A stretch of DNA of 32,971 nt, from the UHGV virus genome UHGV-0159523, one strand, 5' to 3'. Source of the DNA: a virus. Positions 1-32,971 of the stretch are shown here, piece after piece. Numbering within the stretch: the first letter of the stretch is position 1; every line of letters begins with the position of its first letter. Made by a program: the position numbers and the translations under genes. The notes under the pieces were generated by a model. The model was not told the DNA's origin. It searched no databases and saw only the letters and a program-made list of their open reading frames with translations.

Positions 1-55
1 GTGCACATTCCAGCCTGAACTCAGGGGTGAAGGTTCGTTTGGTTTTCTTGTTCAT
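1..55 (-). CDS. Partial CDS, IS3-family-like transposase OrfA N-terminus (continues beyond window start)
   Basis: Minus-strand ATG at 53-55 preceded by AGGTG (61-65 complement); translation [18 protein letters not shown]... matches the K/R-rich FxPEF(K/R) N-terminal pattern of IS3-family OrfA HTH proteins. Only 18 codons visible. Confidence 0.3.
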
Positions 56-122
56 TAAGTCACCTGTTTTGTGTTGTGGTGAGAATATCACCTTTCATCA
101 GGTGGCCAAATTTAGTGTGCCA

Positions 123-452
123 CTACAAGGTCAGCGTCACGGACTGCCCCTGATCGTCATAGACAGCCACCTCCCCAGTCTGCAGCCCTTTCAGGCGGTA
201 GCGACGGTCCGACACCGTAACAACCACCGCATGAGAACGGTCTCCATCCGGAAACAACACCACCGCTTCCGCACCGCTGTTTGCCCTTGCGGTAAAACCG
301 TAGGGTTCAAGATGTTCAATCCCGGCTTTGGGTTCACCGGCAATCAGGGACACATCCACGGTCTGACATTTCGTGGCGGCACTGATGCTTTTCACCACTG
401 CCCGCCCAATCAGGCCGAGAAGTTGTCGCTGCATGGCTTCAATCGTCCTCAT
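123..452 (-). CDS. Baseplate assembly protein (Mu gp45 / gpV-like), 109 aa
   Basis: ORF track; position immediately downstream of Mu gpP-like gene in a Mu-type tail module; start overlaps upstream stop. Confidence 0.5.
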
Positions 453-1531
453 CAGAACGGGTCCTCCTGTACTCTGGCTTTTTTCTTTTTCCGCGCGCCG
501 GGATCTTCGGGTTCAGGCAGATAAGCATCAGGCGGGCCGACACGGATTTCCGTCAGGGTGCCGTTCTGGTCCTGAGTAAACGTGACTTCCGAAACAAGCA
601 GTTCGGTATTGTCGAAACCACAGACCGGATCAAAGACAATCACCCGCTGGTTGGGCTGCCACAGCGTACCGTTACCCTGTCGCCAGCCCTGCACCACATA
701 GGTGGTTTCATCCGTCCGCGCCGCCCGTTGCCGGGCTTCAAAGTCAGCACGCGCAATACAGCCTGCCCCCGTAGCCTGCCCTGTCTGCCTGATATACATC
801 GGACGGTAACGGGCAATAAATGCGTCCTCTGTGCGGGCCCGCAGCGCGGTGGTGGTGGCCTCACCGAAATCATCGTCGTTTCCGGCACGCTGCCCCGCCA
901 CCTGGTAAACAGAAAACCGCTCCCGGATACTCTTCTCCGTATCGCAGGAAAGGATGTTTTCCCCGAGTACCAGCGCGGTATGTGCCCGCGTTGAGCCAAT
1001 ACCGCCAATCACCAGCCTGCCGTGCGGGTCGTCGTAAGCCAGTGCCTGCTGCTGACCGAGTATTTTGTTGATTACCTCAATCACCGTTTCACCGTGATCA
1101 GGCTGAACATCAGGAATAACACCCGACGGCGCACCGCTGTTCACCACCTCAATGCCGAAAGGCGCAGCAAGCGCCTGCGCAATCTGTACCAGCGATCGTC
1201 CGTTAAACTGTGTCGGTTCGGCTGCACAGTCAATCAGGTCAGCGGTCAGACTGCGTCCGGCAATACCGGTGCTGACCGAACGGGCATCGTAACGAACGGG
1301 AGTCGCCTCCACCCAGCCGGTGATCACCAGCTCATCACCAATCAGCACTTCCACTTTTGAACCGTTTTTAATGCGCGGCTGAAGCGTGGTGATACCCTCA
1401 TCTCCCGGCCACTGGCGAGTGATCTCCACACTGAAATCCCGCGCCAGCCGTTCAATACCGGCACCGATGCGCACCGATGTCCAGCCATTCCACTCCCGGC
1501 CATTTACCCGTAGCGTGACATTGTCGTTCAT
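452..1531 (-). CDS. Tail/baseplate protein, Mu gpP-like (phage late control D family), 359 aa
   Basis: ORF track; size and position after DNA-circulation (gpN-like) gene; start/stop overlap typical of coupled tail operon. Confidence 0.65.
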
Positions 1532-2904
1532 TGCACTGGCACCTTCAGAGGGATCACCGGCACAAAGCCGGGATGCGTAATGGCATTACGCCGGATAATG
1601 TCCGCGTCACGCGCCGCGTTATCAAACCAGGTAGCCGCCAGCACCAGCGCGGGTAAAACCTCATCCGGTGTGCGCTGAATGATCCGTGCAGACTGTTCAA
1701 GGCGCGTGTTGATATCCGCATTCAGATCTGCTTTCACCCGGCGCAGCGCCAGAAACAGCGCATCACTGGTTGTACGGGACAACTCCTTATCAATTGCCGT
1801 ATTCAGTGTGTCGCGAATGTCAGTCAGTTCTTCCCACGTCGGCAGGTCAACCGTGTTTTTCACCGCCGGTACATTGTTTAGTGCCGGATGCGTGACGGAA
1901 GGCCAGCCAGTGCTCTGCGCGGGTGTTGTTGCCTGCCCCACTGCGGAATTCTGCATCACCGCGGAAATTGTTGGCGCAGGCAATCGGGTGACGGCATACG
2001 CCGCTTCGCTGATTGCGGTCGTACGAAGGGTGCTGGCAACCACGTTACGCTGCTGCGTCGCCGTGGCGGTGGTTTTACTGTCCGTTTTCCAGACGCCGCG
2101 CGGTTGCAGATCGCTGCCGAGGCTGACACCGGAAAGCGTTTTGATCATGGTGACCAGGTCGCTGGCGTTACCATAAAGGCGTTTCCCGGTCCGCCACATT
2201 TTCTGCACCTGCTCAACGAAATTTTTGCCTGACGATGGCGGCGGCAGAAGTACCGAGATATCCCCCTGCAACAGCCTGGCGGCATCCGATACGGCAGAAT
2301 CCACCACTTTCATCGCATCAGAAACATACCCCAGCATCATGCTGGCATTACCGATAACGTCGTTCTGCACGAAATCCGCCACACCATCGATACTGAAACC
2401 GCTGAAGCTGTCACTGATGCAGTCATCCAGTGCAGAACAGGATGACATCAGCGTCTGCGCCGTCGCCGCACCTGATGTGGGGTAAGAGAGTTCTCCTGCT
2501 TCGACAAACTTCAGGTCAAAGCGGACAATACGCCCTTCACTTTTCGATGTGCTGACCCGAACTTCCCCGTCAACACAGACTTTCAGCTCACCATATGTCG
2601 GGTGGACAAGCGTGCCGGGACCGGGTTTATTCAGCGCTTCAATCAGGCGATCGCGCTGGTCAAAGCAGTCATCTCCCACCACATAAGCTGTGATGGACGG
2701 GCGGAAAGTGACTTTTCCCAGATCTTCGGTATAGGGCTTGTCGCGGTTCGGGTATTCATGTGTTTCCACACGGCGACCAGTTCCCGCACTTTCTTCTTCA
2801 ACCTTAAACGGCACGCTGCGAAATGACGCATCCTGAAGCCTGTCTTTCCACGTCATATAAGTCCCATATTTATTATCAGTAGTAATATTTACTGGTAATG
2901 CCAT
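1528..2904 (-). CDS. Mu gpN-like DNA circulation protein (tail module); alternative start at 2856
   Basis: N-terminal motif WKDRLQDASFRSVPFKVEEESAGTGRR typical of the DNA-circulation N-terminal family; the first 16 codons lie in the AT-rich island, so ATG at 2854-2856 (MTWKDRL) may be the true start. Confidence 0.7.
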   Translation of the reverse strand: MALPVNITTDNKYGTYMTWKDRLQDASFRSVPFKVEEESAGTGRRVETHEYPNRDKPYTEDLGKVTFRPSITAYVVGDDCFDQRDRLIEALNKPGPGTLVHPTYGELKVCVDGEVRVSTSKSEGRIVRFDLKFVEAGELSYPTSGAATAQTLMSSCSALDDCISDSFSGFSIDGVADFVQNDVIGNASMMLGYVSDAMKVVDSAVSDAARLLQGDISVLLPPPSSGKNFVEQVQKMWRTGKRLYGNASDLVTMIKTLSGVSLGSDLQPRGVWKTDSKTTATATQQRNVVASTLRTTAISEAAYAVTRLPAPTISAVMQNSAVGQATTPAQSTGWPSVTHPALNNVPAVKNTVDLPTWEELTDIRDTLNTAIDKELSRTTSDALFLALRRVKADLNADINTRLEQSARIIQRTPDEVLPALVLAATWFDNAARDADIIRRNAITHPGFVPVIPLKVPVQ

Positions 2905-2966
2905 AATTTGTAGTGGTAGCCATTACCATTTGTAACTATATAAATTATTAGCATTAAGGTGATAAC

Positions 2967-31326: not shown

Positions 31327-31676
31327 TGGAGCCATACAGCCTCACACTCGATGAGGCCTGTCATTTTCTCAAGATATCCAGACCGACTGCCATTAACTGG
31401 ATACGCACAGGGCGTCTTCAGGCAACACGCAAAGATCCCACTAAGAATAAATCTCCTTACCTCACAACACGACAAGCCTGCATTGCGGCTCTTCAGTCTC
31501 CGCTGCATACTGTCCAGGTGAGCGCGGGTGATGGCATAACAGAGGAAAGAAAATGTCACTCTTCCGCAGAGGTGAAATATGGTACGCCAGTTTCACATTG
31601 CCGAACGGTAAAAGATTTAAACAGTCTCTTGGAACAAAGGACAAAAGGCAGGCGACAGAACTCCATGACAAGCTAA
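31326..31676 (+). CDS. xis: Excisionase (AlpA/MerR-type HTH), 116 aa
   Basis: SD AGAGGTG; N-terminal [35 protein letters not shown]-binding motif; immediately upstream of and overlapping int. Confidence 0.7.
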
Positions 31677-32716
31677 AGGCTGAAGCATGGCGGGTCAGCA
31701 AACTTGGTGAAATACCTGATATAACGTTCGAGGAAGCGTGTGTCAGGTGGCTTGAAGAGAAAGCACATAAAAAATCACTGGACGATGACAAAAGCCGGAT
31801 CGGATTCTGGCTTCAACATTTCGCAGGAATGCAACTAAGAGACATTACTGAATCAAAAATTTATTCAGCAATGCAGAAAATGACGAACCGGCGTCATGAG
31901 GAAAACTGGAAACTCAGGGCAGAAGCATGCAGAAAAAAAGGGAAACCTGTTCCAGAATACACGCCAAAACCAGCGTCCGTTGCAACGAAGGCTACGCATC
32001 TTTCATTTATAAAGGCCCTACTAAGAGCCGCAGAGCGTGAATGGAAAATGCTGGATAAGGCACCAATTATTAAAGTGCCCCAATCAAAGAATAAACGGAT
32101 CCGCTGGCTGGAGCCCCATGAAGCACAAAGGCTGATTGATGAATGTCCGGAACCATTAAAGTCTGTTGTTGAATTTGCACTGGCAACAGGCCTAAGACGC
32201 TCGAACATCATCAACCTTGAATGGCAACAAATAGATATGCAGCGCCGGGTGGCATGGATAAACCCGGAAGAGAGTAAATCAAACCGCGCAATTGGCGTTG
32301 CGCTGAATGATACTGCATGTCGCGTATTGAAAAAACAAATCGGGAATCATCACCGTTGGGTATTTGTGTACAAGGAAAGCTGTACCAAACCAGACGGAAC
32401 GAAAGCGCCAACAGTCAGGAAGATGCGGTATGACGCAAACACAGCCTGGAAAGCGGCGCTGAGACGGGCTGGTATTGATGATTTTAGATTTCACGACTTG
32501 AGACACACCTGGGCAAGTTGGCTGGTTCAAGCCGGAGTCCCGTTGTCAGTGTTACAGGAAATGGGAGGCTGGGAGTCTATCGAAATGGTTCGTCGATATG
32601 CTCACCTTGCACCTAATCACCTTACCGAACACGCACGGCAAATAGACTCGATCCTAAACCCATCGGTCCCAAATTTGTCCCAGTCAAAAAATAAGGAAGG
32701 TACTAATGATGTGTAA
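31553..32716 (+). CDS. int: Tyrosine integrase (phage-type site-specific recombinase), 387 aa
   Basis: N-terminal [21 protein letters not shown] typical of enterobacterial phage integrases; catalytic HDLRHTW box and RRYAHL tyrosine motif; ends 15 bp from the tRNA 3' end. Confidence 0.9.
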
Positions 32717-32730
32717 CTTATTGATTTAAA

Positions 32731-32806
32731 TGGTGCCGATAATAGGAGTCGAACCTACGACCTTCGCATTACGAATGCGCTGCTCTACCAACTGAGCTAT
32801 ATCGGC
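32731..32806 (-). tRNA. thrW: tRNA-Thr (anticodon CGU), thrW-type; prophage attachment site at its 3' end
   Basis: Reverse complement folds as a 76-nt tRNA ending in CCA with anticodon loop TT-CGT-AA; sequence matches E. coli tRNA-Thr(CGU) as I recall it. Confidence 0.9.
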
Positions 32807-32971
32807 CCTGAAAGGACATGTTCACGAACGTGAATCACGGTGGACAAGGTTAAAACTAACCGGGCGATGCGTCAATGGCCTTGTGAATCAAATGGCTACT
32901 TTTGCATCACCCGGTTTTATTTACGCACGAATGGTGTAATCACCAATGCCGATCCACTTGTAAGTGGTCAG

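Follow-up and report, generated by a model that had tools for sequence, protein, structure and literature searches.

Four AT-rich, moron-like passenger units probably carried by an SfV/e14-type prophage at thrW

The viral sequence UHGV-0159523 (32,971 nucleotides, nt; 'the window' below denotes this whole stretch) contains several short AT-rich segments whose genes resemble nothing that can readily be named. The question raised by this locus is what these segments are: core genes of a known phage family, decaying filler, diverged members of catalogued anti-phage systems, or morons, i.e. independent transcription units added to a phage genome (PMC3594210). We consider it highly likely that the window comes from an SfV/e14-type lambdoid myovirus prophage at thrW, of which it represents the int-proximal ~33 kb, and that it carries four AT-rich moron-like passenger units. 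They are designated A, B, C (which encodes C2 and C1) and D (the gene pair D1-D2 next to the cI repressor gene); the coordinates of all features are given in Table 1.

Variable segments in a near-identical backbone

The best overall matches to the window are Escherichia phage vB_EcoM-689R6 (ON470584), which covers 82% of positions 1-25000 (96.9% identity), and, over 19835-32971, the prophage at thrW in E. coli 1217KP (98.2% identity). Among 5,426 complete E. coli genomes searched, none covered more than 81% of the right-hand 18 kb. The structural genes show ~97% DNA identity to those of SfII, SfI, SfIV and SfV. Three segments (2861-3442, most of 15709-17098, and 18400-19834) are left uncovered by the two closest relatives; in 15709-17098, two short stretches alone align to them, at 72-75% identity. 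The immunity region is a fourth variable segment, found in full form in 15 of the 5,426 genomes. The thrW prophage of strain GB089 has the same immunity and integration DNA as the window together with different late genes, showing that module exchange goes on.

The inserts also differ from the core in composition. The GC fraction is 0.565 for positions 1-2860, 0.549 for 3443-15708 and 0.524 from Q to cro, against 0.375 for island A, 0.418 for island B (0.369 in its open reading frame, ORF) and 0.352 for island C; in region D the values are 0.428 (cI), 0.356 (D1) and 0.423 (D2). In relatives the corresponding sites hold other genes or none. The circulation/tape-measure junction is empty or contains a gene for a protein of 162 or 225 amino acids (aa), the HNH/lysis junction contains a DUF6173 gene or other small ORFs, and the Q/holin junction contains a 213-aa gene, an 85-aa gene or other ORFs. 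In vB_EcoM-689R6, 53 bp stand in place of island A and other genes occupy the B and C sites; this phage also has a Dam methyltransferase gene that is absent from the window. The 1217KP prophage differs in its lysis-proximal region and has the 213-aa gene at the C site. Sites A-C are therefore exchange hotspots. B and C are inherited independently of each other across contexts, and the four units occur at different frequencies among the 5,426 genomes (A, 70; B, 2; C, 41; D, 15). The cargo proteins, which are labelled hypothetical in public records, recur in identical form on hundreds to more than 1,000 contigs. Thus A, B and C have the presence/absence pattern amid 97% identical flanks, and the deviant GC content, of morons. 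The sequence-only reading of this DNA had placed AT-rich accessory islands at such hotspots, and both the composition (0.35-0.43 against 0.52-0.57 in the core) and the alternative cargo of relatives agree with it.

These distributions bear directly on the alternative that the cargo consists of core genes which are conserved in the SfV-type family and whose functions are known, an outcome that the sequence-only reading had set against itself. B is indeed constant at the HNH-lysis junction and D1-D2 always follow the repressor. However, A, B and C are absent from the nearest relatives, which align right up to the edges of the inserts, and the cargo genes are missing from SfV, SfII, SfIV and the closest phage. 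They are found in only 2-70 of the 5,426 genomes, no phage record matches island C, and none of the families with a known function in Pfam, NCBIfam or PADLOC is represented. We give this alternative almost no credence.

Transcription signals of the inserts

As morons, the passenger units would be horizontally acquired, independently transcribed and expressed from the repressed prophage. A and B lie antisense to the late operon and would thus need promoters of their own if they are expressed. A hairpin followed by a T-run is found after A (3417-3438; -19.5 kcal/mol), B (16277-16301; -15 kcal/mol) and C1 (18442-18425), with z-scores of -2.9, -5.7 and -3.0, respectively; no clear terminator was seen after D2. 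Terminator-like sites were more frequent than in shuffled sequences in both halves of the window (31 versus 18.3 and 22 versus 14.0).

Individual promoter candidates were found for B and C. B has the extended -10 candidate TGgTATAAG at 15930-15938. In island C, a consensus extended -10 (TGtTATAAT, 19795-19787) lies directly past the tR'-like terminator, ~40 nt before C2; a hairpin (19465-19448) separates C2 from C1, and C1 has a candidate of its own, TTGATG-16-TATCAT at 19414-19387, which agrees with 9 of 12 consensus positions.

The B candidate is bracketed by a 9-bp perfect inverted repeat, GAGTATTTT-N10-AAAATACTC (15920-15947), which from its sequence and placement looks like a putative operator for a regulator. 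A scan of the window with Rfam gave nothing beyond the tRNA and a truncated match to isrC; the non-coding parts of islands B and D are thus not explained by any riboswitch or small RNA.

The repressor-linked pair D1-D2

D1 and D2 are located inside the immunity region, between cI and oL. D1 starts 16 nt past the cI stop codon and both genes are co-directional with cI; given this spacing, they would be read from the repressor transcript. In D2, a Gly/Asp-rich N-terminus precedes a coiled coil and a hydrophobic helix at the C-terminus; D2 matches phrog_3556 (276 aa) over the C-terminal half of that family only.

The D1 family is tiny, with four other clusters, and its members recur in the same arrangement. 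The D1 homologues of Serratia (53% identity) and Edwardsiella (86%) begin 12-19 nt past an S24 repressor gene, and a D2 homologue comes next; the two overlap in Serratia and, of the two Edwardsiella contigs, in one. The pair is conserved down to 53% (D1) and 35% identity. The repressors that precede it in Escherichia, Edwardsiella and Serratia share their C-terminal domain and differ in their DNA-binding domain; the pair therefore travels with the repressor.

D1 and D2 are unrelated sequences from overlapping frames; the cluster look-up nevertheless put them in one 90%-identity cluster. Possible reasons are an artefact of the clustering and the existence of fused or frameshifted variants.

C1 and the lysis junction

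C1 has no Pfam family. Its homologues form 9 clusters in a word-indexed search, and a profile search across 1.84 billion representatives yielded 230 of these (E up to 0.001). The family representatives, taken at 50% identity, are mostly 255-270 aa long. The AlphaFold2 (AF2) model has a pLDDT of 71 (~85 for residues 1-140), and the N-terminal domain is TBP-like. Island C as a whole gave no match in 50,697 phage records, distant mode included. C2 is probably a small winged-helix DNA binder; a PDB sequence search returned nothing for it.

In enterobacterial phages, C1 homologues are always directly upstream of the holin gene, across three Q families and two holin families. Could C1 then be a component of the lysis module, such as an antiholin or a lysis-timing factor expressed with the late operon, rather than a passenger? 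Its constant position, its place downstream of both Q and tR' on the strand of the late genes, and its membrane helices are in accord with this. However, most SfV-type relatives lyse without C1, its GC fraction is 0.343 compared with 0.51 for the lysis genes, a terminator lies between C1 and the holin, and distant homologues are solitary genes in non-phage contexts. Moreover, the gap between Q and holin is a general cargo hotspot (PMC3851460). We therefore regard a lysis-module role as unlikely, and treat C1 as a passenger below.

The upstream neighbour of C1 is C2 in the E. coli clone only, and an N6/N4 methyltransferase gene or a 66-aa ORF elsewhere. One of the distant homologues adjoins a HigB/HigA-like pair and another a weak TIR-like protein. 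With such varied neighbours, and with solitary distant homologues, C1 is a self-contained unit. It would be a stand-alone membrane protein with a cytoplasmic sensor-like domain, which could serve as an abortive infection (Abi)-type effector or as a lysis modulator; C1 may be a single-gene Abi effector.

An obligate two-gene system formed by C2 and C1 was also considered and was rejected, since distant C1 homologues occur without C2 and with other neighbours instead. In several lambdoid phages, a gene for a ~350-aa N6_N4 DNA methyltransferase recurs immediately 5' of the C1 homologue. In some E. coli assemblies the C1 call is 164 aa long rather than 264 aa, a difference suggestive of inactivating mutations in part of the population.

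Islands A and B

The island A protein matches the tRNA_anti-like OB-fold family PF12869 (69.5 bits; cut-off 23.5). In its AF2 model (mean pLDDT 86.9, ~95 in the OB domain), an N-terminal helix is followed by a disordered Ser/Thr-rich linker and an OB barrel. The best PDB match of the model is 3f1z (E = 1.6e-5), an uncharacterised Klebsiella 'putative nucleic acid-binding lipoprotein'; a PDB search by sequence found nothing. The single transmembrane (TM) helix has an N-terminal flank charge of +3, and the OB domain has an isoelectric point of 5.2. Homologues form 90 clusters across Enterobacterales, and an alignment of 20 of these has 20 invariant columns, including Cys129 and Cys144. From these sequence features we infer that the OB domain faces the periplasm and contains a disulfide.

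Two phage contexts of A homologues fit expression in the lysogen. In Burkholderia phage Carl1 the homologue lies in the repressor operon, 5' of a terminator, and in a Klebsiella phage the baseplate module carries an OB-domain gene as an antisense insert.

B encodes a protein for which Pfam, PADLOC, PHROGs, NCBIfam and a PDB sequence search gave no match. Every context read shows it at the same HNH-lysis junction, and the index of the collection lists it for 527 blocks.

Weighing the passenger interpretation

AT-rich DNA gives rise to many ORFs, and it may be asked whether the inserts are decaying or non-coding filler with chance or spurious ORFs. The doubtful 81-aa call at 28055-28300, the frameshifted pseudogene at ~28427-28737 and the truncation of C1 in some strains would suit this explanation. 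However, the cargo families are conserved across genera, with invariant residues and constant length, the folds of A and of the N-terminal half of C1 are predicted with confidence, and sequences resembling ribosome-binding sites, together with terminators, frame the cargo ORFs. Filler thus seems a highly improbable explanation, and we retain that of passenger units.

Several observations do weigh against the passenger interpretation as a whole. (i) The left end of the prophage falls beyond the window, which starts inside the gp45/V-like baseplate gene; the serotype-conversion (gtr) genes for O-antigen modification, which in SfV-type phages adjoin attP on the tail-fibre side, would lie beyond it too, if present. 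(ii) Promoter-like sites were not more frequent than in shuffled sequences in either half of the window (20 versus 24.2 and 7 versus 9.4), so that the argument for own promoters comes from the individual candidates and from gene orientation. (iii) No promoter candidate before A agrees with 9 of the 12 consensus positions (the best has 8 of 12). (iv) In Pantoea, Serratia and Pectobacterium, homologues of A with 53-63% identity stand alone on the chromosome, and A may have a housekeeping role in the envelope apart from phages. (v) Distant C1 homologues are found as solitary genes in unrelated, non-phage contexts (Moraxellaceae, Deltaproteobacteria, metagenomes). (vi) No cargo protein has a meaningful score in PADLOC-DB 2.0.0, where only weak helix-turn-helix (cI) and weak coiled-coil (D2) matches appear, so defence or exclusion roles are argued solely from position and architecture. 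The sequence-only reading had credited the islands with their own promoters and terminators; the terminators of A, B and C are well supported, whereas the promoters are candidates.

Given its solitary chromosomal homologues, the phage copy of A looks like a captured host envelope gene. It would be an envelope protein from Enterobacterales chromosomes that perhaps alters the envelope and possibly excludes other phages. A more specific proposal, that A is a phage-specific superinfection exclusion (Sie) protein, was downgraded because its closest homologues outside E. coli are these solitary genes.

Control, structural and integration modules

The genes form two strand blocks, on the minus strand from 1 to 25864 and on the plus strand from 25915 to 32716, up to the tRNA gene. 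The region of the early-right and delayed-early genes (19964-25864) shows 96-98% DNA identity to vB_EcoM-689R6 and to the 1217KP prophage. Divergent cro and cI genes, two clusters of operators and the position of Q, which precedes the late genes, make lambdoid control evident. With one mismatch allowed, the palindrome CTACTTnnnGTAG has 8 matches, compared with 0.83 expected by chance, and all of them fall in two clusters (25898-25978 and 27697-27732) that flank cI and the two ORFs after it. By sequence and position these clusters are oR-like and oL-like operator sets, at both of which the cI repressor would act. A hairpin with a T-run (19857-19838; -13.7 kcal/mol, z = -4.4), 107 nt past the Q stop codon, stands where tR' is expected. 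The genes for lysis, packaging, head and tail lie on the same strand, downstream of Q and this terminator.

The third oR-type palindrome, CTACCTATGGTAG (25966-25978), includes the annotated cI start codon (ATG at 25972), so the cI maintenance transcript may be leaderless or nearly so, as is that of lambda cI from pRM. A fifth presence/absence site was noted at 23241-23244, where an N6-adenine methyltransferase gene of ~650 bp lies between the LexA-like and PerC/YfdN genes in vB_EcoM-689R6 and two more relatives; it is absent from the window and from the 1217KP prophage.

The window has a Mu-type tail and baseplate set, and an HK97-type head with a P27-type small terminase and HNH gene. At its left edge, positions 1-59 (minus strand) match the Rfam family isrC (RF01387) with 59.7 bits (gathering score 39). 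This match spans model positions 1-59 of 123, is cut at the window edge and lies within, and on the same strand as, the gp45/V-like gene. isrC is a Salmonella Hfq-binding small RNA (Rfam RF01387); the overlap suggests that the family derives from, or overlaps, tail DNA of SfV/ST64B-type prophages.

The integrase is 99.7% identical to SfIV Int and 89.7% identical to P22 Int. Its stop codon is 15 nt from the tRNA-Thr(CGT) gene, beyond which relatives have proA-proB-phoE; this segment is the int-proximal junction between prophage and host. Left of it, positions 28733-31382 are 96.8% identical to yfdP-yfdQ-yfdR-yfdS-yfdT-ypdJ of the K-12 cryptic prophage CPS-53. The yfdP-xis operon has an intermediate GC fraction (0.462) and is conserved across the family; it is therefore not an island. 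Just past oL, a 98-aa ORF (plus strand), which has no match in PADLOC-DB 2.0.0, is overlapped by 83 nt by the 81-aa ORF 28055-28300 (minus strand). Both are called as proteins on more than 1,000 contigs, and PGAP retains the plus-strand one only.

These results allow the modules proposed by the sequence-only reading to be judged. Mu-type contractile tail, HK97-type head and lambdoid control were all called correctly (Pfam, DNA identity), as was a P22/SfV-type int at thrW, in view of the Int identities, the adjoining tRNA-Thr(CGT) and proA in relatives. The accessory operon was rightly recognised as of CPS-53 type; it is, however, the conserved early-left operon of the family, downstream of oL, and not cargo. 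The likeness to SfV/e14 elements is confirmed by the ~97% DNA identity to SfV-type structural genes and by the published gene order. The proposal that the modules stem from at least four lineages holds for the assignment of the modules; their combination is a long-established, stable architecture of one family.

Table 1. Features of the window, passenger units first
Feature	Position	Strand	Basis or remark
Island A	2861-3442	+ (antisense to tail operon)	between DNA-circulation and tape-measure genes; GC
A ORF, 148 aa, N-terminal TM anchor and OB fold	2967-3413	+	PF12869; AF2
Island B	15709-16519	+ (antisense to late operon)	between HNH and lysis genes
B ORF, 93 aa, acidic, soluble	15968-16249	+	sequence reading
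Island C	18434-19963	-	between Q/tR' and holin
C2, 89 aa, winged helix-turn-helix-like	19749-19480	-	phrog_32916; weak DUF2513
C1, 264 aa, N-terminal alpha/beta domain and three TM helices	19270-18476	-	phrog_30208; AF2; TM scan
D1, 115 aa, zinc-ribbon	26692-27039	+	two CxxC pairs
D2, 126 aa, coiled coil and C-terminal TM helix	27011-27391	+	TM scan
gp45/V-like baseplate gene	1-452 (cut by window start)	-	Pfam; 97% DNA identity to vB_EcoM-689R6
GpP/gp44-like baseplate hub	452-1531	-	Pfam GpP-like_1st, Gp44-like_2nd, GpP_4th
DNA-circulation protein	1528-2904	-	Pfam DNA_circ_N
Tape measure	3446-5278	-	Pfam PhageMin_Tail
Tail assembly proteins, tail terminator, head-tail connector genes	within 3446-9675	-	annotation of vB_EcoM-689R6 and one further relative
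Tail tube	5689-6045	-	Pfam Tail_tube
Tail sheath	6045-7541	-	Pfam Phage_sheath_1/1C/domII
HK97-type capsid	9725-10930	-	Pfam Phage_capsid
S78 protease	10945-11631	-	Pfam Peptidase_S78
Portal	11573-12814	-	Pfam Phage_portal
YmfR-like	12814-12996	-	Pfam
TerL	13008-14741	-	Pfam
P27-type TerS	14738-15241	-	Pfam Terminase_4
HNH	15358-15708	-	Pfam
LysC-type o-spanin	16520-16891	-	Pfam LysC
i-spanin	16710-17102	-	DUF2570 assignment
GH19 endolysin	17099-17713	-	Pfam Glyco_hydro_19
Two holins	17713-17994, 17981-18367	-	Pfam Phage_holin_3_7, Phage_holin_8
Q, DUF968, KilA-N, RusA, LexA-like, PerC/YfdN, O-like replication protein, DUF4222, CII-like YmfL, Cro-like (YdaS)	19964-25864	-	Pfam; Q = PF03589
oR palindromes	25898-25978		between divergent cro-like gene and cI; palindrome scan
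cI repressor	25972-26676	+	Peptidase_S24 and HTH_3
oL palindromes	27697-27732		5' of early-left operon; palindrome scan
98-aa ORF (phrog_3195), first gene past oL	27841-28137	+	called in relatives
Frameshifted pseudogene	~28427-28737	+	ORF listing, relative annotation
yfdP	28752-29114	+	96.8% identity to K-12 CPS-53 region; Pfam; PGAP names in 1217KP
yfdQ/DUF2303	29180-30004	+	CPS-53 identity; Pfam; PGAP names in 1217KP
yfdR	30105-30668	+	CPS-53 identity; Pfam; PGAP names in 1217KP
yfdS-like	30659-31021	+	CPS-53 identity; Pfam; PGAP names in 1217KP
yfdT	31021-31326	+	CPS-53 identity; Pfam; PGAP names in 1217KP
xis-like HTH_17	31242-31676	+	Pfam
Tyrosine integrase	31553-32716	+	Pfam; identity to SfIV Int
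tRNA-Thr(CGT) thrW	32731-32806	-	ARAGORN and Rfam

Comparison with known systems

Apart from PF12869 for A, no family of PADLOC-DB 2.0.0 or NCBIfam and no characterised Pfam family matches the cargo proteins; that they cannot be named, as had been said from the sequence alone, stands. Could they nevertheless be diverged members of catalogued anti-phage systems, such as RexAB, membrane OB proteins of the AbiP/PdpSau type or Sie proteins? This would be favoured by the position of D1-D2, by the existence of AbiP (Lactococcus) and PdpSau (S. aureus prophage), which are membrane-anchored OB-fold proteins that cause abortive infection (PMC10127798), and by the fact that A matches phrog_8545, labelled 'superinfection exclusion Sie-like' in PHROGs; no experimental source could be traced for this label. 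However, A, B, C1 and C2 have no PADLOC match and D2 has coiled-coil noise only, the best solved relative of A is the uncharacterised 3f1z, and distant A homologues occur in 5 phage records only, none of them annotated as Sie.

In A, as in AbiP and PdpSau, an OB fold comes after a TM helix at the N-terminus, and A likewise is a prophage accessory gene. The C-terminal domain of PdpSau is cytoplasmic and positively charged, and AbiP binds nucleic acid (PMC10127798). By contrast, A has an acidic OB domain with an invariant Cys pair and a predicted periplasmic location, and shows no detectable sequence relationship to either protein; on its predicted topology, A thus lacks the cytoplasmic, positively charged or nucleic-acid-binding OB domain of that group.

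In lambda, cI-rexA-rexB is arranged like the D1-D2 locus: the two genes lie between cI and oL, co-directional with the repressor gene, and one product is soluble and the other membrane-anchored. Of the features that define RexAB, D1-D2 thus share the two-gene position with one membrane product, and by inference co-transcription, but not homology. D1 and D2 have no sequence similarity to RexA and RexB (Pfam, PADLOC, NCBIfam) and are much smaller, and D2 has a single C-terminal TM helix whereas RexB has several TM helices. A soluble and membrane pair at the rexA-rexB position would fit an exclusion or abortive-infection function, and by this analogy D1-D2 may be a functional analogue of RexAB. 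Taken together, membership of the cargo in the catalogued systems appears quite improbable.

We therefore keep to the reading of the inserts as passengers outside these systems, and put forward, tentatively and as less likely than its negation, that one or more of them provides a new prophage-encoded anti-phage function missing from current catalogues. The best candidate may be the repressor-linked D1-D2 pair, followed by the C1 family. The interest of the locus lies in four compact, cleanly bounded passengers that are widespread in Enterobacteriaceae and sit where genes for exclusion, defence or conversion are classically found; for phage-challenge screens, the C1 family and the cI-D1-D2 cassette offer cheap and well-defined candidates.

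CPS-53 (KpLE1) differs from the window in its attachment site, argW, and in its integrase; the window has thrW and an SfIV-type Int. In addition to the early-left operon, positions 23241-24443 are 97.3% identical to CPS-53 yfdN-yfdO. In K-12 the counterparts of these two stretches abut directly and, on the basis of this yfdO/yfdP junction, CPS-53 resembles a deletion derivative of such a phage from which ~4.3 kb (window 24444-28732) are missing, namely a part of the replication gene together with cro, cI and all of the immunity region.

The backbone itself brings nothing new. It is that of a textbook SfV-type prophage, and its gene order and control logic are standard for the SfV/e14 family. 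SfI and SfIV have been described as lambdoid myoviruses, kin of SfV and e14, that integrate at thrW beside proA, and SfI was termed mosaic (PMC3636060); a low-GC moron between Q and the lysis cassette is likewise known in SfV-type phages (PMC3851460). As this architecture has already been published for SfV, SfI, SfII, SfIV and e14, the combination of modules is not a fresh mosaic. The serotype-converting Shigella phages SfV, SfI, SfII and SfIV are without islands A, B and C, and differ from the window in the content of the variable junctions and in immunity specificity. What they and the E. coli prophage e14 share with it is the order of the tail, head and packaging genes, the thrW site next to proA, and the moron site between Q and the lysis genes.

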